From Thermoguttaceae bacterium (GTDB lineage: Bacteria > Planctomycetota > Planctomycetia > Pirellulales > Thermoguttaceae), in assembly GCA_039680305.1 (NCBI GenBank), contig JBDKTH010000436.1:1-50864 (forward strand): a stretch of 50,864 bases of DNA. The letters run 5' to 3'. Position numbers and translations under genes: made by a program. Positions 4,980 through 50,864 of the stretch are shown here, in pieces. The notes beneath the pieces were generated by a model, which saw only the letters and a program-made list of their open reading frames with translations, did no database searches and had not been told where the DNA came from. The first letter of the stretch is position 1. Every line of letters begins with the position of its first letter.

Positions 4980-5005
4980 GCGCGCAGGAAGAAGGAGATC
5001 AATGT

Positions 5006-9164: not shown

Positions 9165-9184
9165 TCCAGGGCTCGTGTCCCTCG

Positions 9185-9233
9185 CCAGCGAGCGGAGGCT
9201 CCAGCCGTTTCCGCTCGCTGGCGTTTTTGTTTC
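9185..9233 (+). terminator. Rho-independent terminator after the AAA+ gene
   Basis: CCAGCGAGCGGA / TCCGCTCGCTGG 12-bp stem, followed by CGTTTTTGTTT. Confidence 0.75.
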
Positions 9234-9278
9234 GTGAATTGTGAATCCTAAACTCTCTTCCTTCATGGAGAAAGACGT

Positions 9279-26969: not shown

Positions 26970-27512
26970 GAGAAGAAAAAGGCCCTCGCCAATGCCTGCC
27001 AGGCGGCCAGGGCCGAGTGCGAGGACGGCCCTTCAGGGCAGGTGATAAAAGCAGCCTGGGGCCAACCGACCAGAGGCTGTCTAGTTGGCCCACCGGCTTC
27101 ATTCGGAGGTGGTGATCGTGGGCATCATCATGCCAGTGGTAGACGGCAGCGAGAGAACTGTGTGGTTGGTCTACCGATGCATGAAGACTCGGAGATGGCT
27201 CCGGCCCTGCCACTGACGGCTCTCAGCCGGCGTCCTTGCCGCATAGCTTTAGAGTATCAGGCCGTTCGTGGCGACATCCCCGCTTGGCAGCGGCTCCCGG
27301 TTCAAGCCACTCGCTGAGGCTGAGCAGTTCGAGAAGCGGGCATAGGGGAAATCCCTAACCGGTAAGAGGGACGGCAGTTGTGGGATGTTCTCTTTCTTGG
27401 GTATTCTGCAGGAAGACCACTTCGTGATAAGAACGTGCTCTTTTGCCGACTAGATTCGTGTCAGGGATCCCCTCGCACGTTCACGCCATGCCTCGAAGGG
27501 ACGTACCCTCTT

Positions 27513-31272: not shown

Positions 31273-31794
31273 ATGGCCCAGCAGTCAACTCGCTCCGCGA
31301 ACTATGAGCGTCCAGGGCATGGACCATTGCATCGCCTGCTGGCTTGGAGCGGGACTTTTTCGATTGCGTTGGCTGTCATGCTGGGCGTTCTCGGCGGCAT
31401 CGGGGCCTTCACCTTCGGCTACGGCCAAGGCAGCAGCTATCTGAGCAATAATCCGCAGGCCTGCGTCAACTGCCATGTGATGCAGGAACATTACAATTCG
31501 TGGCAGAATTCCAGCCACCATCATGTGGCGGTCTGCAACGACTGCCATCTGCCGCACGATTTCGTGGGGAAGTGGGCGACCAAGGCGGACAATGGCTTCT
31601 TTCACTCCCTGGCCTTTACCCTCGAGAATTTCCACGAGCCGATCCAGATCAAGCCGCGCAACCGGCGCGTGACTCAAAACGCCTGCCTGCACTGTCATCA
31701 GGCGACCGTCCACCAGATGCTTCCCGCCACAGGCGAGGGGGAGATGCTTTCGTGCGTCCACTGCCACAGCGACGTGGGCCATGCCCACCGATGA
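31273..31794 (+). CDS. nrfH: NrfH, tetrahaem NapC/NirT-type quinol dehydrogenase (start codon uncertain)
   Basis: N-terminal TM helix. Four CXXCH: CVNCH, CNDCH, CLHCH, CVHCH. Confidence 0.85.
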   Translation: MAQQSTRSANYERPGHGPLHRLLAWSGTFSIALAVMLGVLGGIGAFTFGYGQGSSYLSNNPQACVNCHVMQEHYNSWQNSSHHHVAVCNDCHLPHDFVGKWATKADNGFFHSLAFTLENFHEPIQIKPRNRRVTQNACLHCHQATVHQMLPATGEGEMLSCVHCHSDVGHAHR

Positions 31795-31891: not shown

Positions 31892-33646
31892 ATGAGCCCC
31901 GAACACGCCGATCAGCAAGGGCCTGCTGTTCAGGAAACCACCACGTCGAGCGACACAACCGTAGCGGGCCGCAGTTGGGTGCGCCGCCGCCTGCTCCTGC
32001 TCTCGGGCCTGTTGGCGGTGGTGGCGGTGGTGACCTTTGGCGTCACGGCGCTGCTGGTGACCATCTTCGAGCATCGCCAGGAAGCCCGCACCCCGTTCGT
32101 TCGACGGGTCGAGGTGGATGAGGTGACCACGGATCCGGCGCCGTGGGGGATCAACTGGCCCTCCCAGTTTGACACGTACCGGCGGACGGTCGACGTCACC
32201 CACACGCAGTATGGCGGCTCCAGCGCGATGCCGGCCAGCAAGCTCGAAGAGCAGCCGTGGCTGCGCCGCCTCTATGCCGGCTACGCCTTCAGCCTCGACT
32301 ACCGCCACGCCCGGGGGCATGCCTACATGCTGTTCGATCAGGAGGTGACGGAGCGCGTGACCAAACGCCCGCAGAGCGGGGCCTGCTTGCACTGCCACGC
32401 GTCGGTGATCCCCACCTATCGCCGGCTGGGCCTGGAGGCGCAGGGCAAACCGGCCGACGCCCAGGCGCTGGCGGCCGGGTTCAACTGGCCGGCGGTGATG
32501 GAAGGCTTCCGACGGGCCTCGACCATGGACTACGCCACGGCCCACGCGGAACTGCTCAAGACGCCGGACGGCACGCCCGGCGAGAACCGGAAGCTTTTCC
32601 CCGGCGGCGCCCCGGTCAAGGCACCGACAGCGGCCAAGCCTGAGGAGGCCTCCAAACCATCCGTTGACCCGCACGGGCACGACCGGCTGGGCGAGGCCCA
32701 TCCGGTCAGTTGCGTCGACTGTCACGATCCCGAGACGTTGCAGGTCCGCGTGACCCGGCCCGGTTTCGTCTTGGGCATCGCGGCGCTGGCCAAGAGCGAC
32801 GCCCCCCTTCCGCACCTGCCGAGCATTGAACGATGGCGCCAGGGCGACCGCAAGGAGCCGTACGATCCGAATCAATTGGCCAGCCGCCAGGAGATGCGCA
32901 GCTTCGTCTGCGGGCAGTGTCACGTGGAATACTACTGTGCCAACAAGGAAACGCTCTTTTTCCCTTGGAACAAAGGTTTGAAGGTCGAGCAGATTGAAGC
33001 GACCTACGACGAGCACCGCTTCCCCGATGGCAGCCCGTTCTACGACTACGTCCACGGCGAGACCGGCGCGTACGTCTACAAGGCCCAGCATCCGGAGTTC
33101 GAGCTCTGGAGCCAGGGCGTGCACGCGCGCAGCGGCGTGACTTGCGCCGACTGCCACATGCCCTACGAGCGTCAGGGGGCGATGAAAGTCAGCAGCCATT
33201 GGGTCCGCAGCCCCATGCTGAACATCAACAACTCCTGCCAGACCTGCCACAACGTGCCTGAGGCCGAACTGCGCGAAAAGGTCGAGACGATCCAGAACCG
33301 TACCGTCGCGATGATCGATCGGGCGGCCGCCGCGATGACCGATATGCTCGACGCGATCCGCGAGGCCCAGGCGGCCGGCGCGACGCCCGAGCAGCTGGAG
33401 CCGATCTTTGCACTGCAGAAGAAGGCGATGTGGCGGCTGGATTTCATCAGCAGCGAGAACTCCCGGGGCTTCCACGCCGATCAGGAGGCGGTGCGGATCC
33501 TCGGCGAGTCGATCGACTACAGCCGACAGGCCCAATTCCAGGCCGTGCGGCTGCGTGCCCCGGCGGCGCCGCCCGCTAAGCAGCCGGTCGAGCCGGTCCA
33601 TGGGGTAACGCCTACCGAAAAAGCTCCGCCGCGCCCAGGACCATGA
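31892..33646 (+). CDS. nrfA: NrfA-type pentahaem cytochrome c nitrite reductase
   Basis: Five CXXCH (CLHCH, CVDCH, CGQCH, CADCH, CQTCH). NrfA-like [21 protein letters not shown] and [10 protein letters not shown]-terminal TM/signal anchor. Confidence 0.85.
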
Positions 33647-33677: not shown

Positions 33678-34778
33678 CTAGCATGTTTCGGCGCTCGATC
33701 CGCCCGGTTCGTGCGCGATCGTACGAATTGCCGTCGTCCATCGTGAGGCGGCTTCCGGCGTGTCCGCGTCCTTCCACGCATCAACAAGCTCGACGGGAAC
33801 TTTCACGATACGACTCTTCGGGTGTCGTGAGATCTCTCGCAGACCGCTGTGGCTCCACGCGGCAATCGACTCGATCGCCTTGCGACATCGGAAGTCATAC
33901 CATGCCAGGAGAGGTTCTACGGCCCCCCCCTCCAACACCCGTGGTAGTAACGCCCATACGCCAGGTCTTCGCTGCGACAGGACCCACGATACTGCCTGCC
34001 GCGACAGCAGCGGCAAATCGCAGGCCGTCAGCAACCACGTCGCCCGAGGCGCCCAGCGCATAGCCGCCAAGAGGCCGGCCGTGGGCCCCTTAGTACCAGG
34101 CGAGTCTGGAAGATGCGGCAGATAGCGAAGGTCCTCCGGGACATCTCCGCGGCCAGCAAGCACCACTTGCGAACAGCAAGCCTCCAGAGCAGAAACGGTT
34201 CGGTGCAACCAGGTTCTGCCGGCTCCGTCAGCATCTGGAAGCAGATGCTTCGGACATCCCATCCGCGTGCTGCGGCCTCCGATCAAGACGCAGCCGAACA
34301 CCGGGGCAGTCCGCGATCGTTCGCTGACAAACTGCAGAAGGACGTTCTCAAGCACGGAATCACGATCGGCCGCCCAGGGCAAGATCGGGTCAAAGGGCCC
34401 CAGATCATCTGGTGGCGAGTGTTCATCGCGCCCGAGAAGCCACGTCTTCCGGCACGGGAGCCGCTTGAAGCCTTCGAGCAGGATAAGGTCGTAACGAGCG
34501 GCAAGACGGTCGAGCTCCCACTCCAGCGACGCGTCTTCCTGATGGAGACTTCGCGAAAGTGACTCGCCGGGCCCGCGCACGATAACATCTGCGCCTGCGA
34601 GAAAGAGTCGATCGCTATCCTTGTCCGGACAGTCGCGGTCGATTCCATGGACGTCATGTTTGACCACGGCGACCCGAAGCCCACGCCGGACAAGCCGAGG
34701 CAGGATCCTCGCCAGCAGCGTCGTCTTCCCCGAGCCGCTATAGCCGCAGACACCGAAGACAGGTAGTGAGTCAAACAT
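33678..34778 (-). CDS. mobA: MobB-MobA fusion (Mo-cofactor guanylyltransferase with its adapter)
   Basis: N-terminus VFGVCGYSGSGKTTLL...VAVVKHD (MobB). C-terminus VFGCVLIGGRSTRMGCPKHLL (MobA). Confidence 0.85.
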   Translation of the reverse strand: MFDSLPVFGVCGYSGSGKTTLLARILPRLVRRGLRVAVVKHDVHGIDRDCPDKDSDRLFLAGADVIVRGPGESLSRSLHQEDASLEWELDRLAARYDLILLEGFKRLPCRKTWLLGRDEHSPPDDLGPFDPILPWAADRDSVLENVLLQFVSERSRTAPVFGCVLIGGRSTRMGCPKHLLPDADGAGRTWLHRTVSALEACCSQVVLAGRGDVPEDLRYLPHLPDSPGTKGPTAGLLAAMRWAPRATWLLTACDLPLLSRQAVSWVLSQRRPGVWALLPRVLEGGAVEPLLAWYDFRCRKAIESIAAWSHSGLREISRHPKSRIVKVPVELVDAWKDADTPEAASRWTTAIRTIAHEPGGSSAETC

Positions 34779-35739
34779 GAGCTGACTTCAATGAAATGGG
34801 TCGCCCGCAATCCGATACTTCGCCGCGCAGCGTCGCCAGGCCGTGTGGGAGAGCAGGTAGCACCACGCTCAGGTTCTCGCTTGCGGCCCGCACGGAACCG
34901 GGGAGATTCAGGATCAACGTCCGGCCACGGATGCCCGACGCTCCGCGGGAAAGCATGGCATGAGGGGAACACTGGAGCGACGCGGCTCGCATTGCCTCAT
35001 CCAGTCCGGGCGTGAACCGTTCCACGACGCTTCGGGTCGCCTCGGGCGTGACGTCGCGAGGACCAAAGCCGGTCCCCCCAACCGTCACGACCAGGTCGAT
35101 GGAGTGCCCATCGCAGTAGTGCCGAAGCCGCTCACCAATCGTATCTTTCTCATCCGGCAGGATGTCATTCGCGAAGACATGGGCGCCAAGTCCACCCTGA
35201 AGAAGCGAAGCAATTGCCGGACCGGCGGTGTCCACACTCTCGGCACGGCTGCAACGGTCGCTGATCGTCAGGACAACAGCCTGGAGTGTCGCACGTGCGA
35301 CGCTGTGGGTCACCACGGCCTCGACGCCGGCCAACACTTGGCCGCTCGCCTCCACGCGGGCGAAGAGCCCCCGGCGCGGCATAATGCAGTCACCCGTGAG
35401 GTGATGAATGCGACATGGGGCATGACAGGTCTTGCCGATCTGAGTGATCGAGAGCACAACGCTCGTTCCCAGGCGAATCTGCGAGCCGAGGCCAAGTTCG
35501 CCTAGCTTCAGCCCGGAAACAACGAGGTTCTCGGCGAATGCACCCGGTTGCAGATCGGGCAAGCCGTTGCGCCGAACCTCGTCAATATCCGCGCCGTCCA
35601 GTAAGCTAACTTGGCGATGCCATGCCCCGGCATGGGCGTCCCCTTCGATGCCGTGGTTGGCGGCAAACGTTGCCTGCGCGACGGGGGTCTTGCGTTCCCC
35701 CTTGCGCTGACTGATACAAACCGCTTCGACTCTGCCCAT
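34771..35739 (-). CDS. MOSC domain fused to a MogA/MoaB-type domain
   Basis: N-terminus VEAVCISQRKGERK...HGIEGDAHAG (MOSC). C-terminus VVLTISDRCS...DLVVTVGGTGFGPRDVTPEAT (MogA/MoaB). Confidence 0.8.
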   Translation of the reverse strand: MGRVEAVCISQRKGERKTPVAQATFAANHGIEGDAHAGAWHRQVSLLDGADIDEVRRNGLPDLQPGAFAENLVVSGLKLGELGLGSQIRLGTSVVLSITQIGKTCHAPCRIHHLTGDCIMPRRGLFARVEASGQVLAGVEAVVTHSVARATLQAVVLTISDRCSRAESVDTAGPAIASLLQGGLGAHVFANDILPDEKDTIGERLRHYCDGHSIDLVVTVGGTGFGPRDVTPEATRSVVERFTPGLDEAMRAASLQCSPHAMLSRGASGIRGRTLILNLPGSVRAASENLSVVLPALPHGLATLRGEVSDCGRPISLKSAHV

Positions 35740-35743
35740 CGCT

Positions 35744-36271
35744 TCACTCCTTTCGCCGCCAGTGCCCTGATTTGCCCCCTTGTTTCTCCAACAACCGAAT
35801 CGGTCCGATAGTAATGCCCTTTTCCAGCGATTTCACCATGTCATAGACGCACAGGGCTGCCACGCTGGCTGCCGTCATCGCTTCCATCTCAACGCCGGTG
35901 CGTCCCTGGCACTTGACCGTCGCCACGAGCCGCACCCGGCCGGCCTTCAACGTAGCAACGACGTCAACGACATCCAAAGGAAATGGATGGCAAAGGGGAA
36001 TCAACTCGGGCGTGCGTTTCGCGGCCATGATTCCGGCGAGTCTTGCCGTTTCCAGCACATTCCCTTTCGCACCGCCCCCCTGCTGCCGAATCATCCGTGC
36101 CACGGCCGGCCCGACCTCGACCCAGGCCTCGGCCACGGCGGCTCGCCGCGTGGACGGTTTGCCCCCCACATCCACCATGCGTGCGGAGCCGTCGGCAATG
36201 TGGGTCATCCGTTTGGGCGGAGCCTTTGCTTTGCGGGAAGTGAGATCGGTCCGCATGGGGTTCTCCATCAT
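35744..36271 (-). CDS. moaC: Cyclic pyranopterin monophosphate synthase MoaC
   Basis: LTHIADGSARMVDVGGK..., LIPLCHP, GRTGVEMEAMTAASVAAL. Confidence 0.9.
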   Translation of the reverse strand: MMENPMRTDLTSRKAKAPPKRMTHIADGSARMVDVGGKPSTRRAAVAEAWVEVGPAVARMIRQQGGGAKGNVLETARLAGIMAAKRTPELIPLCHPFPLDVVDVVATLKAGRVRLVATVKCQGRTGVEMEAMTAASVAALCVYDMVKSLEKGITIGPIRLLEKQGGKSGHWRRKE

Positions 36272-37513
36272 TCAAATGCGATGTGCCAGGAGACTGAAGG
36301 AGAGCGTGTGCCCGATCGGCAGTTCCTTCTGGCCCGGCGGCACTTCGACATACGCGTTGGCTTCATGGGAGTGGAAAATGTCGGCCGAGCTCGCCGCCGA
36401 AAGCGGGAGGATAGTCCAGCCATCGGGCGAGGGCGCCTCCGACTGGACCACGGCCGGCACGAACCGTGTTCGGCCACGGTCGGGCTGAAGCGGTGCGAGG
36501 AGGTGTCCCTGCCCGGTGGCCGTCTCGGTGCCGCGGCCGCCCATTCCGGCAATGGCGGCTCTCACATAGCGGCAGAAACAGAAGTGACATGCCAGCGGAT
36601 TGCCCGGCAGCCCGAAAAGCAGGCTCCGGCCTCGCCGGGCCAGCAGCAGCGGCTTGCCGGGTTTCTGCACGACCTTGTGGAAGAGGATCTCCGCACCCCC
36701 GTCGAGGAGCACCTCGGGGACGAGGTCGAAGGTACCCACCGAGGCTCCGCCGCTGAGCACGACAAGATCGCATTGCCCTGCCTCATCGAGGGCGGCACGG
36801 ATGGCGCCGCGGTCGTCGCCCACCAGCCTGCACATCGGCAGTGCCAAGCCGGAATCGAGTGCCAAGGCCGCTAGCATGAGGCCGTTCGAGTCGCGAATCT
36901 GGCCGTCGCGGGGGCGTTGCGAGCCGACGACGAGTTCCTCGCCGGTGACGATCAGGGCCATCCGCGGCGAGGGAATCACCGCAATCTCGCGCCGGCCGAT
37001 GCTTGCCAAGGCGGCGATTGCCAACGGCGTCACTACGGCGCCGTCCAGGATGACTTCCTCGCCCGCTGGACAGTCGCTGCCCACTTCGGCGATATGTAAA
37101 CCCGGCGGGATCGTCGCGGGCAAGACCACCCGGTCTGCGTCGTAGCGGATGTGCTCTTTCTGCACGACGGCTTCCGTGCCCGGCGGGCAGGCGGCGCCGG
37201 TCATGATCTCCACGCACCCCTGCGGGGTCACGCGATGAGCCATCGTTTCGCTCCCCGCTGGTTGTCGGCCGACGACGGCGATGGCTTGACCGGCGGAAGC
37301 CAGGCTCACTGCGTAGCCGTCCATCATGGCACGCCGGAAGGGCGGATAGTCACGATCGGCGTGAACCGACTCGGCCAAGGGCCGGCCCATCGCGTCGAGT
37401 AACGGTACTTGCCGGGCGGGCAATGGCGTAGCAGCATCAAGGACTATACGATAGGCTTCGGCGGGGGAAACCATGGTTGATACGCGACTCGTTGGACTGT
37501 GGGCGAGAGACAT
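36272..37513 (-). CDS. moeA: Molybdopterin molybdenumtransferase MoeA
   Basis: AGGAGA RBS. GQIRDSNGLML, LVVLSGGASVGTFDLV, VVQKPGKPLL, GLPGNPLAC. Confidence 0.9.
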   Translation of the reverse strand: MSLAHSPTSRVSTMVSPAEAYRIVLDAATPLPARQVPLLDAMGRPLAESVHADRDYPPFRRAMMDGYAVSLASAGQAIAVVGRQPAGSETMAHRVTPQGCVEIMTGAACPPGTEAVVQKEHIRYDADRVVLPATIPPGLHIAEVGSDCPAGEEVILDGAVVTPLAIAALASIGRREIAVIPSPRMALIVTGEELVVGSQRPRDGQIRDSNGLMLAALALDSGLALPMCRLVGDDRGAIRAALDEAGQCDLVVLSGGASVGTFDLVPEVLLDGGAEILFHKVVQKPGKPLLLARRGRSLLFGLPGNPLACHFCFCRYVRAAIAGMGGRGTETATGQGHLLAPLQPDRGRTRFVPAVVQSEAPSPDGWTILPLSAASSADIFHSHEANAYVEVPPGQKELPIGHTLSFSLLAHRI

Positions 37514-37528
37514 TGACCGATCTCCTGG

Positions 37529-38539
37529 TTAACCGCCGATCCATACCATTTGCCGCTTAGGCCAGGTTTCGCCCGGCGAGCACTTCGCTACGAGACAGGT
37601 ACGTATTCGCCCGGCGATCTCGTCCTCGTCACCGCGATGAAGTGGCGTCAGCAGGTCTTCGATGTGCGGGCTTCGCAGGCACGACACAAGGCGGCCGCGA
37701 CAATCGAGCCGCAGGCGGTTGCACTTTGCACAAAAAGGATGCGACACCGGTGTGATAAGACCGATCGTCACGGGGCGTCCCTCAACCGTGAAGCAATATC
37801 GCCGAGCCGTTCCGTCTCCATCCAGTTCGCCCAGGCAGGCAAACTCCTGTTCCAAGGCCGTCAGTGCCTCGTTGGCTGGCAGAAAGTCCGTTGCAAAAAG
37901 CGTCGCTCCCGGGCCGCACGGCATCAGTTCAATGAAGCGGATCTCGCAGCCAGAATCGACCGCCAATCGCACAAGCGAGCCCAGACGGCCACCGTTCACA
38001 CGGCGGATAAGCACGCTGTTGAGTTTGAGCTTCACAAAGCCTTCGGCCTGAGCCGCTCTGATTCCGGCCAGCACGCTGTCAAGCTGACCGCCGCGAGAAA
38101 GCGTGGTAAAGGCCGCCGGGTCCAGGGTGTCGAGGCTGATGTTCAGAGCGTCGAGGCCCGCCGCACGCAGCGGTCCGGCCAGCCGCAACAGCAATGAACC
38201 GTTCGTCGTCAACGCCAGCACTGCGTCAGGCAAGATCGCACGAAGGTTTCGCACAAGATCGACCAGGCCAGAACGCAGGAGCGGCTCGCCCCCCGTCAAC
38301 CGGAGTTTGTGCAAAGGGCGCACTCGATCGATGTACCGCACGAGTTCAAGAAGCTCCTCGTTGGATGCAGATGGTGGCGAGGATTCATCGCGGGCCGCTT
38401 TGGCAGGGCGGCAATATTGACAACGGAAGTTGCAGCGGTCGGTGACCGACAGTCGCAAATACAGTGGTTGCTGGACCGTCCGGAGACAATGGAACACGCT
38501 CGTTTCCTTTCCTGGCACGGGCTGCGGCGAACCTACCAA
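37529..38539 (-). CDS. moaA: GTP 3',8-cyclase MoaA (radical SAM); TTG start uncertain
   Basis: LRLSVTDRCNFRCQYCRP (CX3CX2C), and C-terminal CAKCNRLRL cluster. Confidence 0.9.
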   Translation of the reverse strand: MVGSPQPVPGKETSVFHCLRTVQQPLYLRLSVTDRCNFRCQYCRPAKAARDESSPPSASNEELLELVRYIDRVRPLHKLRLTGGEPLLRSGLVDLVRNLRAILPDAVLALTTNGSLLLRLAGPLRAAGLDALNISLDTLDPAAFTTLSRGGQLDSVLAGIRAAQAEGFVKLKLNSVLIRRVNGGRLGSLVRLAVDSGCEIRFIELMPCGPGATLFATDFLPANEALTALEQEFACLGELDGDGTARRYCFTVEGRPVTIGLITPVSHPFCAKCNRLRLDCRGRLVSCLRSPHIEDLLTPLHRGDEDEIAGRIRTCLVAKCSPGETWPKRQMVWIGG

Positions 38540-40169: not shown

Positions 40170-41261
40170 TTATGGACAATTGCTTCGCATGACTTGATGT
40201 TTGGAGTCGAACGCCTTGCGGATGTAGACCGGCTCTTTGAGCGGCACGCGGACGATCTCGCGCCCGTTGTCCTCCAGCGCGCTGATCCAATCGTCCTGAC
40301 GGCGCCAACGCGGCACGAGGCGGTCCGTGCAGCCGAACAGGCTCAGCAGGCCGGCCAGGTCGAGATCGTCCGGTGCGCTGCGGTAGGTCTGAATCGCCGT
40401 CGCCACACGGGGGCCAAACATCTGCGTAAGGAACGCGTCGGGGGCCTGGATCGGCGGAATGTAGTAGACGTTCGGCTCCAGGCCGAATTGAGGAAACAGC
40501 GGCAGTGCGACCTTGCGCACGTGCACGAGATAATCGAGGGGATTGTCGGGCTGAGCCTTCTCGGGCGGCGAGAGCCAGCCGGCCAGGCGGATCTTGCCGA
40601 TGCAATTGACAAAGCACTGCGGCTGCAGCCCCTGCTCGATCTTGGGGAAGCAGGCAATGCACTTCTCCGAGGTGCCGGTAAGCGGATTGAAGAAGACCTT
40701 CTTGTACGGGCATGCCCTCACGCACTCCCGGTAGCCGCGGCAGCGGCTCTGGTCTACCAGGACGATGCCATCCTCGGGGCGTTTGTAGATCGAGCCGCGC
40801 GGGCAGGAGGCCAGGCAGGCGGGATAGGTGCAATGGTTGCAGATCCGTGCCAGGTAGAAGAACCAGTTCAAGTGCGGGACCTGCATCGCCGCGCCGCGGT
40901 CGACCCGGCCGGCGCAATCGTCCTCGCCGACGTTCGGGTAGGCGTAGTCCAGATCGTCGGGACGCCATCCGAGCACCCGCTGGCCGGCCTGGGCGGCCTC
41001 GAAGATCGTGCGTCCGGCATACTGATTGCCCTGCCACTCCTGGGCCCCTAGCTTGGTGAGAAGGTTCAGGTCCCAGGCCAACGGGTAGCAGCCGTAGGGC
41101 TTCGACTCGACATTGTTCCAGAGCATGTACTCCTGGCCTTTTCCCGACGTCCATGTCGTCTTGCAGGCGAGGGTGCAAGTCTGGCAAGCGATGCACTTGT
41201 TGAGATCGAAGACCGCCGCAAACTGCCGTTTCGGCCGGTTCTCCGGATACCAATACGACAT
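40170..41261 (-). CDS. Beta subunit: NarH/NxrB-type four-cluster Fe-S protein
   Basis: [49 protein letters not shown]...CFVNC. Confidence 0.9.
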
Positions 41262-41299
41262 TGACCGACCGATCTGCCAGTTGTAAGCCAATGCCACGG

Positions 41300-44200
41300 C
41301 TAGCCTTCCTTTCTTTTGACAGGATGCGGAACGGCGCCGACGAGGAATTCGCCGGCGAGGTAGTGCGCCATCGCTTCCGATTCGTACATGGGGCGGATGC
41401 CCAACGCCGCGGGGCGCCAGAGGCCCTCGGCCTCCAGCCCGCCCGGCTCGGCGCGGGTGATCTTCACAATCGCCTCGCGCGGAGCGCCGGTCGGACAATG
41501 GACGTCGGGCATGAACCCTTCGCCGATTCCCTGGCCGAACATCGTCTTGCGGACCAGCGAATCGGTCATCAACGTGGGCTTCAGCCAGCCGCGGGTGGCC
41601 GATTGGTGCGATCCGGAACGGAACATTGCCTGGTACGGGGTCCGTGGATTCTTCGCCAAGCCGTCCTTGCGGACCCTCTGCCCCTCCTGCGAGCCAGGGG
41701 TGGTGCCGTACATATTGAACCACATCCGCGTCACGCCTCGCGGGGTGCCCGGGTAGTACCGCGCCCGACAGAGCAGCCGCGCGAATTGATAGTCCTTGGC
41801 GTTCTTCTGCCAGCCGCGGAAGGGGCGATCCTCGGGATCGGAATCGATCCACACGTAGTCGCCGTCTTCGACCCCCAGATCCTTGGCGTCGAGGGGATGG
41901 ATGTCGACGTAGCCTTCGGTCACGAAGGGACTTCGCTTGTCGCGCCGGTAGACGTCGCCAAACGGACCGAAGAGCATCGCCACCATGTCGGTGTCGATGG
42001 GCATCGTGTGGGCCCCATGGCGGTACTTCGGCGTGTGGAACACGAAGCGATAACCGTCTTTCGCCAAGGGATGGACCGATTGGCTCGTCTCGACCCAAGT
42101 CTTGACCACGTTGCGCCCGCAACGGGTTTCGCAGGAAAGATCGTCGCGGCTGACGCCGTACTTCTCCGGCCCCGCCGGACGAATCGCCTCGTGTTGCGGA
42201 GCCACGATCACGTTCGGCTCATAGAAAGTCGAGTCGACCGGCTCCCGGTGCACGGGCAGGTTCTCTCCCGCTTCGATGAATTCGTCTTCTTCGCGGTAGA
42301 GTTCCAGACGGCCGCTCTTCGTGTACCAGGGACGCGAATCGGTCACTTGCTCGTAACCGACGGCCTTCGGGCTCGTGCGGCTCTGGAGAATCGCCGGGAT
42401 CCCCTCCTTCGCCTTGGCCTCTAGGTCGCGGAACTCGTAGCCCTTCGCGTTGCAGGAATGGTCGAGAATCCGCTGCAGGTACACGTCGGTGCGTCCCTCG
42501 CGGACGAACTTCCAGTAATCGTTGAACCGCGTGTCGCCAGTGAGCGCGGCCATCTTGGAGGCCACCAGGGCCAGGACCTCGATGTCGCCAATCGTGTGGA
42601 AGATTCGCTTCAGCGGCGTTCGCGGAAAGATCGAGAGGAAGGGGTTCGTGACGGAAGCCGTCATATCGGGGTGTTTCAGCTCCGCCCACGAATCAACCCC
42701 GAACACCACGTCGGCCCACTCGCACGACGTGGACCACCACCACTCGTTCACGCAGATCATCTCGATTCGCGGCAGCATGTTCACCACCATGTTGTAGTGC
42801 CACTTCACATTTCCCAGGATGGAGTTGGCATTGGCGAACCAAAGCGACTTTGTGGGAGTCGGAATGTGGGTCAAGCCGGTGAGCAGGCGATTGCCCACTC
42901 GTAGCGGGTGGTCCTCGTGGTTGTAGTAATGGGCCGATTCCGACTTCCAATACTGTCGCGGGCGCGCCGGTTTGGCCGGATCCAGCTCGATGTCAAAGGG
43001 ATTTTCGTTGATGTACTGAGGGGCCCCATTGAACAGGGCAACGCGATGGTTGCCGGAGAAGGAGCCGACGTTGCCGCCGATCTTACCGACGTTGCCGGTC
43101 AGCGCCGCCACGAGAAAGATGTCGCGGTCCTTGCTGGCGTTGTTGAAGAACTGGTTCGGCCCCATCCCAAGCGCGAAGAGCGTGGTTCCCGGCTTTGCGG
43201 CGAAATGTCGGGCGAGCGACTCCACCGCCACGGCCGGCGCCCAGGTGAGCTCCTCGGTGGTCTTGGGATCGAAATGCTCGGCATACTCACGAACCAAGTC
43301 GAACACGGGACGGCAGCGGACCGTTTTGCCGTCGGCCAGTTTGACTTCAACGCTCCCCTCCAGCAGTGCTTTGCCGACCTTCGATTGCGTGCCGACCTGG
43401 TCGCGGGTCAAGGCCTGGGGCTTGGCCGAATCTTCGTTCCACCACACGTAGTCCCCCCATTTGTCGCGTATCGCGATGGGAATCAACATCTCCTTCTGCA
43501 CGCCTGCCGGCGGTTCTTGTTCGCCCTCGGCCAGAACGCGGGTGCTATTGGAAAGCTCGGCCGGTTGCCCCCCGAAGACCTCTTGGGCTCGGAGGTACTT
43601 GAGCGTGTCCATGCGGACCAACAGCGGCAGGTCCGTCCACTGGCGAACGTAGTCGATGTCATAGAGACGCTCGCGAAGAATCACGTGCGCAAGCCCCAAC
43701 GCCAACGCCGGTGTCGTGCCGGGGCGGACGACGATCGCGTCGTCGGCCTTGGTGCAGGTGGCCGAGTACTCGCAGGCGATCACCACGATCCGCGTCCCCT
43801 TGAGCCTCGCCTCGGTAAGCCAGTGGGCGTCGGGCATCTTGGTGGTGATCCAGTTCATCCCCCACACGACCAGCGTCTTGCAGTGTTCGACGGCCGAGAG
43901 GTCGAACTCGACGGCCTGCTGGCCGGTGACCATGGGGTGGCCGGGGGGGAGATCGGTATGCCAACTGAAGTTGTCGAAGCCCTTGGCCCCCAGGGCCTCG
44001 TCGGGCGGCACTTTGCGGATTGCCGCGTCCAGCAAGGCCAGCGAGTTGGCGAAACGATACATCCCGAAGACCCGCGTCATACCCAACAGCGGCATCCCGC
44101 CGCGAAACTTTAGCACCTGCGTACCGGCGCCCTGCGTGGCCTCGATCGTGAGCGGGTCGTAGTGTTGGGCCGCCAGCCGCTTCTGCCCCGCTTCGCCGGT

Positions 44201-44770
44201 GTAGGTCTCGGCGATGTTCCTCAGGGCCGCGGCGACGATTGTGGCCGCTTCGTCGTGCGACAGGCGGAGCCACTGATCGCGGGCCCGCTGGAAAAACTCC
44301 TCCGGCGGTCGTCCATCTTCCCCTCGCGGGAAGCCCGCTTCCACCCATCGCTTAAAGCCGGCCCGGACCATGCACTGGTTGACGCGGCGGTCCCCGTAGA
44401 AGCGTCGGGTTAGGACTAGGCCCTTCTGGCAGACCCGCGGGTCCCAGCGGTGGGTCGTGTGGTTGCCCTCCAGGTCGCTCGCCTCCCCGTAACGCATCGT
44501 GGGGCCGATGCGTGTCACCACACCGGAGCGTACATAGGCATTGAGGATGCAGTTGTGTGTATCGTTTGGAGCGCAGAGGAACGTGAACGTCGAGTCGTGT
44601 TTCCACAGATCCCGGTACGCCCGTTCCCAGTCGCGATCGGGGTAGGCAGCCAAGGGGTTGGTCACCGCGTCGAGGCCCCAAGCGCGGGTGGCCGACGCCA
44701 CAAAGGCCCCGAAACCGGCCGCGCTGGCTGTCGCAAGAAAGTCACGGCGGGATTGATGGTTCTGGCTCAT
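41300..44770 (-). CDS. Alpha subunit: Tat-exported molybdopterin oxidoreductase of the periplasmic Nar/NXR (type II DMSOR) type, 1156 aa
   Basis: GGAGA RBS. SRRDFL twin-arginine signal. N-terminal cluster motif C-APN-D-THN-C at 44549-44575. Very large size. Co-operonic beta, gamma and delta. Confidence 0.9.
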
Positions 44771-46434
44771 TTCCGCGTCTCCCAAGTGCGCAGGTAGGCC
44801 ACAATCGACTCGATGTCGGCGGGCGTAAGGATTGGGTAGATCGTTGAAGGATTGAGGAATCCGTGCATGGCAGTGCCGCGCCTCCCTCGGACGATCGTTT
44901 CTACGAGATAATCGTCCGTCGCCGTGGCAAGCAGGATTGGATTGTTAAGTGCCGGGGCATCGAGACCCTCGCCGCCAGCGCCATGGCAGCCCGCGCAATG
45001 GCGAGTGAAGAGCTCTTTGCCCCGGCTTGGCTCAGCATTGATCCAACGCGGGGCGAGATGGACGGGCGTCGGCGCGCCCACCTCGGCCGTCTGTCGGAGG
45101 TGGGCGATGATCGCCGCGATTTCATCCTTCCGCAACCCGCCAGCCGTTTCACTCCAGGCGGGCATCCGGCGACCGGGACGCCCCAACCAGATCGTCGCGG
45201 CGAGAAACCCATCGCTGGCGGTGGCCAGGAAATCCGCATTGCCGATCGCCGGGAAGGGCGGTGTTCCGGCGAAACGCCGCCCCTCGCCTGAGGCTCCGTG
45301 GCAGGCGGCACAGAACGTGGCGTAGAGCGTGGCCCCGTCCGTCCCAAATTCACGCTGCCCGAATCGCTCCGTCTGGATGCGGTCCTTGGGCCAATAGGCT
45401 TCCGGGACATCGCTCCTCCGCAACGAGAGCACGTAGTAGGTCAATAGGTCCACTTCGTCCTGGCTCAGTCCGAACTTTGGCATCTTTGAGCCGGGGACGA
45501 CGCGTGCCGGATCGCGAGTATGCTCGGAGAGCCAGTTGGCCAGCGTGTGCTCGCCCGAGACGTGGGCGAAGTCGAGTTGGCCGGGGTCTCGCAGTCCAAT
45601 CCGCGTCAAGTCTGGCCCGTCGTCGCCGCCAACGCCGCCGATCTTGTGGCAGCCGCGGCAGCCGAGGGAATGGAACAGGGCTTTCGCTTCGATCAGCCGC
45701 GGAGCGCCAACCCGCGATGTCAAATACGACTCAATCGTCTCGCGATCCATGGGGGCGAACGTGGAGAGTCTGCCCTTCCAAGCCTCATGGTCGGGCCGGC
45801 GCACACGTTGGAGATGTTTTTCGTGCCAGTCCTGGTCGAATCCGGTCACTCCGACCTTCGACAGATCAGGGCCCTCCATCCCGCCGGCCCCGCCGGGGCG
45901 AAGCGTGCCGCCGCGTCCGTCGATGCGATGGCACGCCAGGCAGTCGTGCCGCTCGACTAGGTTACGTCCGCGAACCAATTGGTCTTGGCTCGGCACCTGG
46001 AGATGGGTGTGGCAGCTTCCGCAGCCGGCATACGCATACCGCGTAGGGATCATCGGCTCCGGCCAGAAGTGAACCTCCCCATGGGCGTCGGCCTTGTCCG
46101 TCGCCCGTCCCTGTCCGCCGTGACAGACCGTGCAACCGAACTCCGCCGGGTCGTGGCCGACCGGCGGGTGGGCACAAGCCGCAGGATGCCCGCTGACGCC
46201 CTGCTTCCCTGGGGCCATGCCGACGTGGCAGGTCACGCAACGATCCGTGACGCCGAGCTTCGGCACGACGACCTGACGCAGACGCACCTCCAGCGGGCCA
46301 GCATCGGTCTGGACCGAGGTCTGGATTTGCCGCCACTCCCTCAGGAAGTTCTCCTGCACAGCCGCCGCGATCAGCAAGCCCAGCGTGCCGAGACTCGACC
46401 AGAGAAGCAGATGTTTGTTCTTGTTCATTGCCAT
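44767..46434 (-). CDS. Membrane-anchored cytochrome c with seven CXXCH motifs
   Basis: N-terminal [55 protein letters not shown]. The last four sit in class-I-like domains. Confidence 0.85.
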
Positions 46435-47984
46435 CAGTGCCTGGGCCAGTCGGCGGGAGACCAGTAGAAATCCCAGTTCGGACCGCGGAAGTAAGTGCCG
46501 ACCACCGTCAGCACGAGGAATCCGCAGAGGAAGCAGGTGAACAGCGCCAACGCGCCGGCCCGGGCCGACCCGTATCGCTTCACGATCCACAGGGAGTAAG
46601 CGGCATACATGGCGGCCAGAATCGTGCCGGGGTTGATCGCCGTAATCACCAACTGCGGGATTCCTGGAAACCACTCGCGCAGCCAGCCGAAGCGGATGGC
46701 AAAGGCCTCGATCGCCAACACGGCCACCAGGCCGAACCCGAGCGACCCCAGGACCAGTCGCACGCCGCCGGGCCCGCCAAACCACAGGCCCGTTCCGGTC
46801 TCTTCCCGGTCGAGGAACGGAATTAGCCCGAGCCCGACGAGGACAATCATGGGGATCCCGACTCCGCCCATGAACGCCGAATAGGCCACCAACTCCTGCA
46901 ACCCCAGGAAGTACCAGGGGGCTTTGGCGGGGTTCTCGGGAACACTCGGATTGGCCAACTCCTTCAATGGCGCGTCGGAGACCATCGCCAGGGCAAGACA
47001 GAGGAAGAGCGTCACCATCAACACGCCGAGTTCGGCATAGAACAGGTGGGGCATCGAGGGGACCGTGTTTTCCGGCCCGCGTCCGACGGCGGGAGAGACG
47101 CCCCTGACGACCGCCGCTAGATGATAGGTCTTGGCCGGCGCCTCGGTAAACACCGGATAAACGTCTGATGCGGGTTCCAGACGCTGATCGGCATCCACGG
47201 GCCGGGTCATGCCTCCATCCTTCCGGATTCGCCAGAAGTGGACCGCCAGCAGTCCTACGACTGCCAAGGGGAGAATCGCCACATGCAGCACATAGAAGCG
47301 GATCAGGGCCTCTTCCCCGACGATATCGGAGCCCAAGAGCAACTGCCGCTGCAGTCCACCCGGATCAAAAACCTGTGTGATGCCATGCACGTCGGTCAGT
47401 TCTCGGGGCGACTGGGCGATATTGGCGCCGATCGTGATCGCCCAGTAGGCGAGTTGATCCCAAGGCAGCAGATAACCGGTGAAGGAGAGGCCCAGCGTGA
47501 CCACCAAGAGGCTCATGCCGATGAGCCAGTTGAACTCGCGGGGTTTTCGGTAAGCGGCCGTGTAGAAGGCCCGCGCCATGTGAAGCAACACGGCAACGAC
47601 CATGATGTTGGCCGCCCACCGGTGGATGTTGCGGATGAAACGGCCGGTCGGCACGACAAAGTGAATATCCTTGATCGAGTCGTAGGCCACCTCGGGGTAC
47701 GGCTTGTAGTAGAACATCAACAGCACCCCGGTCACGAGCGCAATGAGGAAGGCAGCGGTAGCCGCGATTCCCAGCCCCATAGTCGTGGACCACCGCAAGC
47801 TCCAGCGATGCGTCCGCACCGAGTGAAGATGGAGGAAGACATTGCCGAACACGAAGTTCGACCGCGTGCGATCGGTGGTGGGAGGTCCATTGCGCAGCGC
47901 CGAGTCTCGAATGCGCCACGGGGCTCGGACGAGGTCTCCCAAGAACTTCCGCAGCGGCCTGTCTTCCGTAGCATTCGTGTTCAT
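46434..47984 (-). CDS. Cytochrome b (fused b6 / subunit IV-like), 516 aa
   Basis: [52 protein letters not shown]. Confidence 0.9.
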
Positions 47985-48466
47985 ACGCGCACCTTGGTTC
48001 CTGTGGAGACCGTCGCGCCCTCATCGATCAGACATTCCGAGCCGCTGATCGTGACGGGGTGCCAGGGAAGCGCCTTGGGGGCTGGTCCGCGGAGCACGCT
48101 TCCGTCGGCCGCGAAGTGAGAGCCGTGGCACGGGCACTCGAAGCCTTCCGGCACGGGCTTGACAATACAGCCCAGGTGCGTGCAGACCGTGGAAATCGCG
48201 TACACGCCCTCCGCATCGCGGAAGAGGGCCACGCTGCGACCCGGCGGCACGAAGGGCTGGCCGGGCGCCAGCGACTCGGGAAACGTCACGCGGAACTTCT
48301 TCGACGGGGAGGTCAGCACGGCCGCCTTGGGCAACCGCAGCATTCCCAGGCCGGCGAAGGCGAGGGCCGCCAGCAAGGAGCCCAGGGCCGAGAGCCCCAG
48401 GACATCACGACGCGGCACGGGCTCCGGATCAAGGCGAGAGCGAGACTCGGCGAGCGGGACGGTCAT
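47981..48466 (-). CDS. Rieske [2Fe-2S] subunit (alternative start 48478)
   Basis: PRRDVLG Tat-like anchor. CTHLGC...CPCHGS. ATGA overlaps at both ends. Confidence 0.85.
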
Positions 48467-50385
48467 AGGGTCCTCCATTGGGTCGAACAAGCCACTCGCT
48501 CCATGCTGATCGCATCCGCCGGGCATCGCATGGCGCACAGCGCGCAGCGGATGCAACGGTCCTCGTCCTTGAGGATGGCCGAATGCTCCGCTCGAACGGC
48601 GTCTGCTCCGAGGAAGGTGTCGACGAGAGCGTCGAGGTCCGCGCCCGGTTCGATCTCGGCCAGGGAGGCCAGTTTCAGGCATTGCGTGGGACAAACATCG
48701 ATGCATCCGCCGCACAGCACGCATCGGCTCCCGTCGAACACGGGCGTGACCCCGCAATCCAGGCAACGCGACGCTTCCCGCTGTGCCTCGGCAGGGCTGT
48801 AACCGCATTCGACGACCATATCCGGTCGGCGCAAACGCTCTACCGGCTCAGTCGTTGGAACCGGTGCACGGCGGATGGCCTCGTAACCCGGCTCCCGCTG
48901 ATACCGTTCCAGCGTCAGATGGACGGTGATTGCCTCGGCCGCAAGCTGCCGCCCCGTAACGTGACGGTACACCGATCGCGCGGCCGCTTTGCCCGATGCC
49001 ACGGCGTCGATCAGTAATCTCGTGCCATGGGCCAGATCGCCGATGGCGAACACGCCATCGGCGGTGGTGGCCAGCGTGTCCGGATCGACTTTCGGCCAAC
49101 CGGGGCGGTGCTGCTCGATGTCCGTGCCGCCGTCTTCCAGGAACGCGAGGTCCGTCGCCTGCCCGACCGCCAACAGGACCGTGTTGCAGGGGACCGTCCG
49201 GCGTTGGACGTCGTCGTACTGAGGCGAGAAGCGGCGGTTTGCGTCATAAACCCGAAGACAACGACGGAAGGTCACGCCGCACACCGCTCCGTTGGCGTCC
49301 CGCTCGATCGCCACCGGCCCCCAGCCGCCCATCCGCTCGATACCCTCTTCATCCCCCTCGATGATCTCCACGGTGTCGGCCGGCATGTCTTCGAGGGTCT
49401 CCAGCGACACCAGCGTGACCTTGCCGGTGCCGGGCCGCCGGGCGGCGGTACGGGCCGTGTCGAGGGCGATCTGACGAACGACCGTCCGTGCGACGTCATA
49501 GGCCACGTTACCACCACCGAGGACCACGACCTCGCGTCCCATCTCCAGCGTCTCCCCCAACGCGACCGCACGCAGGAGGTCGACACCGCCGAAGACACCC
49601 GGGCCGCTTTCGCCGGGAAGCCCGAGACTCCGCGAGCGTTTGGCGCCAACGGCGAGAATCACGGCCTTATAGTCCCGTCGGAGACTGGCAAGCGAGACGT
49701 CTTTGCCCACAGTTACGCCGCAATGGATCTTGACGCCCAGGGCCTCGATGACCGCCACTTCCCGGCGGATCAAGTCGCGCGGCAAGCGGTAGGCCGGCAC
49801 GCCCAAGGCGAGCATGCCCGCCGGAATCGGCTCCGCTTCAAATACGACCGGACAAAACCCCATCAGGGCAAGGTCGTGTGCGGCGGCCAGCCCCGCAGGT
49901 CCGGCGCCGACAATGGCGATCGACTCTCCCCCGGCCGGCACGAACTGGCCGGCGACGCCTGCGCGGAGCAGCGAGGCCATCTCCTCGGCGTCCGCCGACG
50001 CTGGGGGCGTCGCCCCGCGAAGGGCCTGGAGGGCCTCCTCCGCCGTGCAATCGTCGAAACCGGACTGTTCATAGGCGAAGCGTTTTAACGCGCGGATCGC
50101 CACGGGCCGGTCCTGGGCCACGAATCGTCCGTCGGCATCGACGCGGGGCACCTTTCCGCGTCGGCAGGCCGCCTCACACGGCGCGCCGCAGATGCGCCCA
50201 CAAATCGACGCCAGCGGATTGGGGCCTCGGGCGATCAGGTACGCTTCTTCCAAGCGCCCAGCGGCAATGGCTCGCACGTATCCTCGGGCATCGGTATGCA
50301 CCGGGCAGGCAACCTGGCAGGCGATCAGGTTGCGATGATAGCCCGCACCGGGAATGTCCACATGGATTGGAGCCAGAGGGTTCAT
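48463..50385 (-). CDS. GltD-like FAD/NAD(P)-dependent oxidoreductase with a C-terminal 2x[4Fe-4S] ferredoxin domain
   Basis: [10 protein letters not shown]...[47 protein letters not shown]-terminus CLDCG...[12 protein letters not shown]...[12 protein letters not shown]. Confidence 0.85.
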
Positions 50386-50397: not shown

Positions 50398-50864
50398 TTA
50401 GCCTGTCGCGGTTCCAGCCTTTCTAGAGTGCTTCTTGCCGGGCCTCTTCGAAGGCTTTGGAGATTCAACAACTGCGATCGACTGAAGCCGAGGACACGGG
50501 GCCAGCCAGCACTGCACCTGATTGGCAATGGAAGGGGCGGGGCTCGGCCGGCTCAAGAAATCCGCCAGTGTCCAGCGGGAAAGGACACTCACGATGGCGT
50601 GGTGAAGTTCGACCCCCGCTTGGTGAAATGCGCAGGTCTTTGACGAATCCGTGGCATCGCTGCAGAAGTCGCCGAGGATGGTGCCTTGACAGGCCTCGAC
50701 GACCGAGAGCAGAGAGATGTCACTGGGGGGACGATTAAGCGAGACTCCCCCGGCGACACCGCGGTGAGCCTTGAGTATCCCCACCCGGACAAGATGTCGG
50801 ACGACTTTGGCGAGATAGGTAGGCGATTCGCCGAGATGCTCGGCCATCAATCGCGGCGACCAGG
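50398..50864 (-). CDS. Rrf2-family transcriptional regulator, N-terminus cut by the window edge
   Basis: ...SPRLMAEHLGESPTYLAKVVRHLVRVGILKAHRGVAGGVSL (winged helix), then C-x8-C-x9-C-x2-H. The reading frame stays open to base 50864. Confidence 0.8.
   Translation of the reverse strand, partial: WSPRLMAEHLGESPTYLAKVVRHLVRVGILKAHRGVAGGVSLNRPPSDISLLSVVEACQGTILGDFCSDATDSSKTCAFHQAGVELHHAIVSVLSRWTLADFLSRPSPAPSIANQVQCWLAPCPRLQSIAVVESPKPSKRPGKKHSRKAGTATG

Follow-up and report, generated by a model that had tools for sequence, protein, structure and literature searches.

The genome of a Thermoguttaceae bacterium (assembly GCA_039680305.1) contains, in a stretch of 50,864 nucleotides of contig JBDKTH010000436.1 (here called the window), an eight-gene operon for a molybdoenzyme and its apparent electron transfer partners. 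By its sequence, the large protein encoded at positions 41300 to 44770 is the catalytic alpha subunit of a periplasm-facing enzyme of three subunits that should contain molybdenum-bis(molybdopterin guanine dinucleotide) (Mo-bisMGD), iron-sulfur (FeS) and haem b cofactors and that is of the nitrite oxidoreductase (NXR) structural type. In this organism, the enzyme probably works as a quinol-dependent respiratory periplasmic nitrate reductase, forming the terminal module of the operon. The alpha protein belongs to an uncharacterised NXR-like group that has already been reported in planctomycetes, and a non-anammox planctomycete is a plausible host.

The alpha open reading frame (ORF) begins with an ATG that is preceded by GGGAG at a distance of about 9 nt and overlaps the stop codon of an upstream cytochrome c gene as ATGA. 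An alternative TTG start is present 5 codons upstream, at 44785. The gene call of the source metagenome (JGI 3300048599, on a contig of 107.6 kb) gives the identical protein. In a phmmer search against all PDB sequences, the top match was Kuenenia stuttgartiensis NxrA (KsNxrA, 7B04_B; 833 bits, E 2e-249), and residues 7-1143 of the query were aligned to residues 4-1144 of KsNxrA in one HMMER domain, so that the two proteins are collinear over their full length, NXR-specific insertions included. A match of this kind already settles the fold of the query. Matches to PcrA (165 bits), EbdA (144 bits) and Escherichia coli NarG (118 bits) were far lower. The length of the query (1156 aa) is close to that of KsNxrA (1148 aa), compared with 899 aa for PcrA, 976 aa for EbdA, 1247 aa for NarG and 913 positions for the TIGR03479 model. 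An earlier note, made from the DNA letters, had described the protein as far longer than enzymes of the SerA/EbdA/PcrA/DdhA type and close to NxrA in size, as distinct from classical NarG, and as exported by a twin-arginine (Tat) signal, SRRDFL, with a periplasmic active site. All three statements agree with our results. The RR motif is found in every sampled member of the clade to which the query belongs.

NCBIfam contains no NXR model and can therefore yield only negative memberships for the alpha protein. Classical NarG identity was rejected on a TIGR01580 score of 128 bits (cutoff 1084), and SerA/PcrA/EbdA/DdhA-type identity on a TIGR03479 score of 282 bits (cutoff 984.75), which two control proteins (P0261 and P0266) passed. 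The traits of a classical NarGHI enzyme are also missing. A Tat signal is present, the first ligand of the FS0 [4Fe-4S] cluster is a Cys and the second an Asp, and the gamma subunit is of the EB_dh type and has no transmembrane (TM) segment beyond its signal peptide.

The cluster motif C-x3-D-x3-C occurs once in the alpha protein, at C66, D70 and C74 (44549-44575), exactly the residues and coordinates that had been read from the sequence before. In the HMMER alignment, the query segment CAPNDTHNC pairs with CSPNDTHAC of Kuenenia NxrA. In the Kuenenia structure, FS0 is bound by C67, D71, C75 and C115, N70 is placed so that it can bind the substrate, and D275 is a ligand of Mo (Chicano et al., 2021). 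The equivalent query residues are C66, D70, C74, C114, N69 and D273. The motif is thus located at the FS0 site, D70 corresponds to the Asp ligand D71, in agreement with the likeness to Nitrospira and Kuenenia NxrA that the earlier note had supposed, and both the predicted Mo ligand and the substrate Asn are in place.

Across all 25 clade members sampled, which represent at least 3 phyla, the FS0 motif, the Mo-Asp and the Tat signal do not vary, indicating that their presence is not due to chance; 553 of the 1156 alignment columns were invariant in the same sample. The FS0 Asp is common to both branches of NXR, with Cys at this position in some Nitrospinota/NC10-type members, and the groups outside the NXR superclade (see below) carry C/H-x3-C-x3-C at FS0. 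The context of the Mo-Asp is WHTDLPPGH in the query branch as opposed to WHGDQAPGH in the Kuenenia branch. Two changes in the Mo-site motif Y-4x-D-11x-QT, Y268F and T286A (window 43952-43969 and 43913-43915), are private to the query; none of 24 other clade members sampled, one of them a protein 94% identical to the query, departs from the motif. We do not take these changes as a sign of decay, because the query has 7 private changes at invariant columns and other clade members have 1-9. The pattern Y-4x-D-11x-QN/QM was also considered as a marker of the Nitrotoga type and found to be uninformative, with QT in the clade and QA in the query.

The position of the alpha protein was analyzed in a neighbour-joining (NJ) tree of 72 full-length proteins (1123 columns, Kimura-type distances, 100 bootstraps). 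The input consisted of close homologues of the query, homologues found with Kuenenia NxrA, representatives of 50% identity clusters and two TIGR03479-positive outgroup proteins; named sequences of Nitrospira, Nitrotoga, Hydrogenobacter or Thermogutta terrifontis were not part of it. The query clade (bootstrap 100) joins Gaiellaceae (54% identity) and SAR202/Dehalococcoidia (45%) sequences in a branch with a bootstrap of 96. This branch is sister to another (bootstrap 100) with Kuenenia and other anammox bacteria, Nitrospinota, NC10 and Omnitrophica, and together the two form a single periplasmic NXR superclade (bootstrap 100). Identity of the query is about 40% to the anammox/Nitrospinota-type NxrA proteins of the Kuenenia branch, 31-34% to a Halorussus/Thermincola/Obscuribacterales group outside the superclade, and 26% to the outgroups. 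The earlier assignment to the NXR clade therefore stands at the level of the superclade, and a placement with perchlorate, selenate or ethylbenzene-type enzymes or with archaeal periplasmic nitrate reductase (pNar) was not obtained, but the query belongs to the sister branch and not to the anammox/Nitrospinota-type clade itself.

An exhaustive search of the 50% representatives returned mostly fragments. The few full-length representatives came from Gaiellaceae, SAR202, Tectomicrobia, Halorussus and Thermincola, and none of them from Nitrospira, Nitrotoga or Hydrogenobacter. When Kuenenia NxrA (as read from the PDB-match alignment) and the planctomycete protein P0124 were used as queries, the searches provided the anammox, Nitrospinota, NC10 and Omnitrophica anchors together with a second planctomycete clade, and recovered no named Nitrospira or Nitrotoga. 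A sister clade rich in nitrate reductases (NAR) that contains Nitrotoga has been described (Kitzinger et al., 2018).

The query clade is very large and strongly conserved. It comprises more than 120 protein clusters at 78-94% identity, a metagenomic sequence is 94% identical to the query, and at least 559 confirmed matches were found among 185,579 species-representative genomes (one genome per species). The best 80 of these matches (76-87% identity) are mainly from Planctomycetota (Thermoguttaceae, Pirellulales, Phycisphaerae), many are from Acidobacteriota, and some are from Binatia, Zixibacteria, Myxococcales and Acidimicrobiia. The nearest loci among the 80 are in metagenome-assembled genomes (MAGs) of Planctomycetaceae, Thermoguttaceae and Pirellulaceae (82-87%), the second-closest being from Thermoguttaceae.

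The two genes downstream of nxrA encode the further subunits expected for an NXR-type enzyme. For nxrB, a GTG at 41297, 3 nt after the nxrA stop codon, is most likely the start rather than an internal ATG at 41261, because the N-terminal residues encoded upstream of the ATG align with Kuenenia NxrB from residue 5 onward. The gene call of the source metagenome (JGI) also gives 375 aa. The haem ligands Met155 and Lys305 of the Kuenenia protein have a Met and a Lys as their counterparts in NxrC, judging from the alignment of the surrounding motifs. According to hydropathy, NxrC has an N-terminal signal peptide and no further TM segment; this statement, like all those on TM segments and haem ligands in this work, is derived from hydropathy and alignments and not from structures. 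The signal peptide (residues 1-22) ends in LSAGC, which resembles a lipobox, and the gamma subunit might therefore be anchored to the membrane by a lipid instead of being freely soluble. The combination of an EbdC-type gamma subunit with a NarJ/TorD-like chaperone (PF09459, PF02613) is a feature of type II dimethyl sulfoxide (DMSO) reductases that is also found in NXR.

Upstream of nxrA, four genes encode what appears to be a Rieske/cytochrome b complex with a multihaem cytochrome c and a flavoprotein. In addition to the cytochrome c/nxrA junction, ATGA overlaps are present at the flavoprotein/Rieske, Rieske/cytochrome b and nxrC/narJ junctions, and cytochrome b and cytochrome c overlap as TGATG. 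The cytochrome c contains class I cytochrome c domains. Cytochrome b matched cytochrome b6 in the PDB with 129 bits, as compared to about 90 bits for the cytochrome b of bc1 complexes. The top PDB match of the Rieske protein was an anammox Rieske protein (9rk4), just above those of b6f complexes. Its CPCHGSHF motif includes a Ser/Phe pair, which has been associated with potentials of 200-230 mV (Baymann et al.), while Kustd1480, with the same pair, was measured at +335 mV (Hauser et al., 2025). Both values are below the potential of the nitrate/nitrite couple at +420 mV. The flavo-FeS protein has no TM segment, and its top PDB match was NfnABC (9bov/9bp5), used to model Kuste4570, the NAD(P) reductase of the anammox Rieske/cytochrome b complexes (Hauser et al., 2025).

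Proteins of the window were compared by tblastn with the best 80 related loci. As far as the contigs reach, all 80, from several phyla, have one gene order: (Rrf2), GltD-like flavo-FeS protein, Rieske protein, cytochrome b, multihaem cytochrome c, alpha, beta and gamma subunits, and NarJ. Gene calls confirmed the order in Thermopirellula anaerolimosa (L082) and an acidobacterial MAG (L083), and a Thermogutta sp. MAG (L039) has the complete cassette at 78% identity. The Rrf2 regulator is upstream in about 29 of the 80 loci and also in T. anaerolimosa, where a molybdenum cofactor (Moco) gene block similar to that of the window again follows the cassette. No oxidase gene was seen in the conserved block of any of these loci. 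Ahead of the cassette, T. anaerolimosa has a qNOR-type nitric oxide reductase, an Rrf2-hemerythrin fusion and a plain Rrf2 (L082:152-4351), and the acidobacterial MAG has hemerythrin, ScdA/RIC and YwiC genes. Nitrate and nitrite respiration is typically accompanied by genes for qNOR, Rrf2, hemerythrin and ScdA/RIC.

Two loci of the Kuenenia branch that we examined are built differently. Both (P0450, from a planctomycete, and P0420, from an uncultured bacterium) have the order Rrf2, NxrC-cytochrome c fusion, alpha, small ORF, beta and NarJ, and contain neither a Rieske/cytochrome b module nor flavoprotein genes. Pirellulales, Gemmataceae and Phycisphaeraceae harbour another NXR-like lineage with about 65% identity to NxrA of the Kuenenia type, indicating that non-anammox planctomycetes carry two distinct NXR-type systems. 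For this lineage (L084:7327-15039 and L085:7303-14849), the NxrC encoded upstream of NxrA is fused to two cytochrome c domains, a small ORF separates alpha from beta, and the Rieske/cytochrome b module is missing.

Table 1. Features of the 50,864-nt window, with positions, strand and supporting observations.
Feature	Position	Strand	Basis or remark
Catalytic Mo-bisMGD alpha subunit (NxrA/pNarG-like), 1156 aa	41300..44770	-	phmmer end-to-end match to 7B04_B; PF00384
Tat motif S7-R-R-D-F-L12, aa 7-12	44735..44752	-	RR motif in every sampled clade member
FS0 [4Fe-4S] motif C66-A-P-N69-D70-T-H-N-C74, fourth ligand C114	44549..44575	-	Aligned to KsNxrA C67/N70/D71/C75/C115
Predicted Mo ligand D273 codon, motif F/Y-4x-D-11x-Q	43952..43954	-	Aligned to KsNxrA D275
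FeS beta subunit (NxrB-like), 375 aa, GTG start	40170..41297	-	Top PDB match Kuenenia NxrB 7B04_A, 370 bits; PF13247
Haem b gamma subunit (NxrC/EbdC-like), 289 aa	39217..40086	-	PF09459 EB_dh; top PDB match Kuenenia NxrC 7B04_C, 55 bits
NarJ/TorD-type assembly chaperone, 217 aa	38567..39220	-	PF02613; ATGA overlap with nxrC
Heptahaem cytochrome c, membrane-anchored, 555 aa, 7 CxxCH, 1 TM segment	44767..46434	-	Stop overlaps nxrA start
Cytochrome b, 516 aa, about 7 hydropathy peaks, b6-like N-terminal half	46434..47984	-	PF00033/PF13631
Rieske [2Fe-2S] protein, 161 aa, RR motif, one TM segment, CTH + CPCHGSHF	47981..48466	-	PF00355
Soluble NAD(P)-binding flavo-FeS protein (GltD/NfnB-like), 640 aa, Fer4_20 + two C-terminal 4Fe-4S motifs	48463..50385	-	Pfam
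Rrf2-family regulator just upstream of operon; 5' end may pass window edge	50398..50850	-	PF02082
nrfH, tetrahaem NapC/NirT	31273..31794	+	Precedes nrfA
nrfA, pentahaem cytochrome c552 family	31892..33646	+	7.6 kb from 3' end of alpha gene
Moco genes MoaA, MoeA, MoaC, MOSC/MoCF, MobB-MobA	33678..38539	-	Downstream of cassette, same strand
Tyrosine integrase	1379-2713	+	
675-aa protein	2887-4914	+	Weak resolvase N-terminal domain match (23.4 bits, Pfam cutoff 23.3)
AAA ATPase	7602-9164	+	Weak TniB similarity
Weak HEPN AbiU2 match	9279-10220	+	Below Pfam cutoff

From gene content, motifs, homology, synteny and phylogeny we infer the direction of catalysis, a physical association of the modules and a role for NAD(P). 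Menaquinol would be oxidised at the Qo site of the Rieske/cytochrome b complex. The first electron would pass from the Rieske protein to the heptahaem cytochrome c, the haem b of NxrC, the four FeS clusters of NxrB, FS0 with its three Cys and one Asp ligands, and finally Mo, where periplasmic nitrate would be reduced. The nearby NrfHA may then convert the resulting nitrite to ammonium. The second electron would enter the b haems and either be recycled in a Q-cycle or be exchanged with the cytoplasmic Nfn/GltD-like flavoprotein, which might alternatively serve as an input for NAD(P)H.

We favour nitrate reduction for several reasons. Genetically, the cassette is tied to quinol oxidation by a Rieske/cytochrome b complex rather than to an oxygen reductase. 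A locus of matching gene order has been described in the nitrate respirer T. terrifontis, which grows anaerobically with nitrate and reduces nitrite to ammonium by NrfAH (Elcheninov et al., 2017), and whose NarG is reported to fall in the clade of anammox bacteria, Nitrospira and Nitrospina (Palacios et al., 2023). The cassette is also present in T. anaerolimosa, which has been described as an obligate anaerobe, and is flanked there or in the acidobacterial MAG by qNOR, Rrf2, hemerythrin and ScdA/RIC genes. A precedent exists in haloarchaea, in which growth on nitrate is antimycin-sensitive and Rieske/cytochrome b genes directly precede those of the outward-facing NarGH; a similar route has been proposed for Methanoperedens. 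The context in the window, with nrfHA, Moco genes and an Rrf2 regulator, points in the same direction. Moreover, the in vitro rate of nitrate reduction by the Kuenenia NXR itself is about 25 times that of nitrite oxidation. Finally, if the module ran backward, it would spend NAD(P)H on making quinol from nitrite electrons, for which we see no obvious benefit.

Other observations weigh against nitrate reduction. The direction of catalysis cannot be read from a sequence, NXR-type enzymes are bidirectional, the sister branch contains anammox and Nitrospinota-type sequences, and the enzymes of Nitrospira, Nitrospina and anammox bacteria are nitrite-oxidising NXRs according to the literature. Among the carriers are many Acidobacteriota found in oxic soils and in activated sludge, where nitrite oxidation would be possible, and this activity has been hypothesised for such planctomycete MAGs in at least one paper. 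The membership of T. terrifontis in the clade appears probable from its published gene order, a published tree and the Thermogutta MAG locus, and the association of the NXR with the Rieske/cytochrome b complex is suggested by operon structure only. The proximity of nrfA, which the earlier note had pointed out correctly, does not help either: no nrfA was found in the 10-kb flanks of the cassette in any of the 80 related loci, and we therefore did not retain its neighbourhood as conserved evidence on direction.

The enzyme could instead be a true nitrite oxidoreductase: it would oxidise nitrite in the periplasm, and a terminal oxidase would receive the electrons by way of NxrC and the heptahaem cytochrome c. 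The bootstrap of 100 for the NXR superclade, the FS0 ligand set of three Cys and one Asp, the class I cytochrome c domains encoded directly upstream, the wide occurrence of carriers in oxic habitats and the published hypothesis for planctomycete MAGs would all fit, and Nitrotoga provides an example of a nitrite oxidiser within a NAR-dominated clade (Kitzinger et al., 2018). Such an enzyme would be difficult to reconcile with a cassette that is joined to a quinol-oxidising complex and lacks an oxidase gene in its conserved block, with its presence in the obligate anaerobe T. anaerolimosa, and with nitrate respiration in the best-described cultured carrier, T. terrifontis; in addition, the two Kuenenia-branch loci are built differently. 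We consider nitrite oxidation as the physiological direction improbable. If it were true, these planctomycetes and acidobacteria would have gone unnoticed as nitrite oxidisers, possibly facultative ones, or as organisms that detoxify nitrite. Even less can be said for another oxyanion, such as chlorate, perchlorate or selenate, in place of nitrate. Relatives among the type II DMSO reductases use such substrates and PcrA is the second-best PDB match, but its 165 bits compare with 833 for NXR, the protein scores below the TIGR03479 cutoff, it retains the substrate Asn N69 common to NAR and NXR, the window ORFs that were scanned revealed no chlorite dismutase, and the context is one of nrfHA, qNOR and NO-stress genes. 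We regard this possibility as very remote.

A further proposal is a variant of nitrate reduction rather than its opposite. Kartal and colleagues have proposed a scheme of quinol-electron bifurcation for the anammox complexes. By analogy with Kustd1480-85 and Kuste4569-74, nitrate (+420 mV) would pull one quinol electron while the other would travel through the b haems, four FeS clusters and FAD to yield NAD(P)H. The parts match those of the anammox complexes (a Rieske protein, a b6-like cytochrome b, a multihaem cytochrome c and an Nfn/GltD-like NAD(P) oxidoreductase), the top PDB match of the Rieske protein is an anammox Rieske protein, and that of the flavoprotein is the template of Kuste4570. 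The Rieske Ser/Phe pair is that of Kustd1480 (+335 mV), and the flavoprotein gene, kept in all loci whose contigs reach it, shows translational coupling to that of the Rieske protein. However, the mechanism still awaits proof even for anammox bacteria, whose subunits other than the Rieske protein we compared by description only. Cytochrome b is a single fused protein here and not split, the carriers are heterotrophs without obvious need for NAD(P)H from quinol, and the flavoprotein could equally be an input module for NAD(P)H. Bifurcation is therefore possible, although rather unlikely. The same tentative standing applies to the idea that the whole eight-gene cassette forms a single respiratory supercomplex, in which an anammox-type Rieske/cytochrome b6 complex would bifurcate quinol electrons to nitrate and NAD(P)+ or, in another version, NAD(P)H would be fed in directly.

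Among characterized systems, the Kuenenia NXR-ABC complex (7B04; Chicano et al., 2021) is similar in its Tat-exported alpha subunit of about 1150 aa, collinear from end to end, in the FS0 ligands, Mo-Asp and substrate Asn, and in its beta and soluble haem b gamma subunits, which are the best PDB matches of their counterparts here and share Met/Lys at the ligand positions. It differs in alpha sequence (about 40% identity, sister branch, WHGDQAPGH in place of WHTDLPPGH) and in gene arrangement, with the order A-B-C-J behind a Rieske/cytochrome b module being found here. No equivalent of the Kuenenia tubule subunit NXR-T was identified. The Kuenenia-branch loci of non-anammox planctomycetes (P0124/P0450 type) and of uncultured bacteria likewise share a Tat-exported NxrA of about 1150 aa, the FS0 Asp, an upstream Rrf2 and a downstream NarJ. 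Their NxrA is about 65% identical to the Kuenenia type and about 40% to the query, and the gene order is C(cytochrome c fusion)-A-x-B-J.

The closest counterpart described in a cultured organism, in terms of gene order, is THTE_1506-1512 of T. terrifontis, reported as 'NarGHI plus complex III' (Elcheninov et al., 2017), with a chaperone (TorD), a gamma subunit ('NarI'), a beta subunit (NarH), a deep-branching alpha subunit (NarG) and three complex III genes. The organism is itself a nitrate respirer of the Thermoguttaceae, with NrfAH encoded elsewhere in its genome. As far as can be compared from the published description, its enzyme was annotated as a cytoplasmic Nar with NarI, in contrast to the Tat-exported alpha subunit and the soluble EB_dh-type gamma subunit in the window. 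Haloarchaeal pNar (narB/narC) shares the outward-facing, Tat-exported alpha subunit and the Rieske and cytochrome b genes immediately upstream, and the route proposed for it runs from quinol via the Rieske/cytochrome b complex and a periplasmic cytochrome to NarH and NarG. Its alpha subunit is different, that of Halorussus being 34% identical, outside the NXR superclade and with a four-Cys FS0, and the published haloarchaeal gene order lacks the multihaem cytochrome c and the NAD(P) oxidoreductase that are part of the cassette here.

For the upstream module, the anammox complexes Kustd1480-1485 and Kuste4569-4574 are close counterparts, with sequence searches covering two anammox Rieske crystal structures and descriptions covering the remaining subunits. 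They share a Rieske protein, a b6-type cytochrome b, a multihaem cytochrome c in place of cytochrome c1/f, and a soluble NAD(P) oxidoreductase of the Nfn/GltD kind that has about four FeS sites. In the window, cytochrome b is fused instead of being split into b6 and a subunit with five TM segments (SUIV), the multihaem cytochrome c has seven haems instead of six or eight, and the complex, in contrast to the situation in Kuenenia, is genetically joined to an NXR-type enzyme.

Several other genes of the window are of note. The NrfA homologue (584 aa) has five CxxCH motifs and no CxxCK, with CLHCH as the motif of the active-site haem, and judging by these motifs it is a CxxCH-type variant of the pentahaem nitrite reductase. 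An N-terminal TM anchor and long extensions at both termini are further features of this protein. Just upstream of nrfHA, a hybrid sensor kinase of 1204 aa (27378-30992, plus strand) with DUF4118, PocR, PAS, HisKA/HATPase, receiver and Hpt domains may regulate the nitrite reductase genes. A protein of 899 aa (14215-16914, minus strand) has a C-terminal right-handed beta-helix/NosD-like region and no family match over most of its length. A run of genes (1379-10220, plus strand) resembles mobile elements or defence systems. A tRNA scan, intended to find an integration site near the integrase, detected no tRNA gene anywhere in the window.

NXR-like genes of non-anammox Planctomycetes and the unsettled direction of their products are already part of the literature. 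In the literature searched, we found no description of a strict cross-phylum linkage between the query branch of NXR and an anammox-type Rieske/cytochrome b complex with an NAD(P) oxidoreductase, nor of the absence of this linkage from Kuenenia-branch loci. The linkage is the most interesting lead from this work and can be tested in cultured Thermoguttaceae. It also provides a usable genomic marker that separates the query clade from the anammox/Nitrospinota-type loci examined.

Such a marker matters for annotation. Pipelines name these proteins 'molybdopterin-dependent oxidoreductase' or 'nitrate reductase / nitrite oxidoreductase', and as a consequence metagenomic studies count them either as NXR, and thus as hidden nitrifiers, or as Nar, and thus as denitrifiers or organisms with dissimilatory nitrate reduction to ammonium (DNRA). 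With at least 559 matches among the 185,579 species genomes, a wrong direction would distort nitrogen-cycle inventories of soils, sediments and treatment plants. The cassette is, in addition, a tractable system for the long-standing proposal of quinol bifurcation by Rieske/cytochrome b complexes that bear an NAD(P) oxidoreductase. If the bifurcating supercomplex were real, a mechanism so far hypothesised only for anammox bacteria would be widespread in Acidobacteriota and Planctomycetota of soil and wastewater, and cultured heterotrophs, Thermogutta and Thermopirellula among them, could be used to test it.

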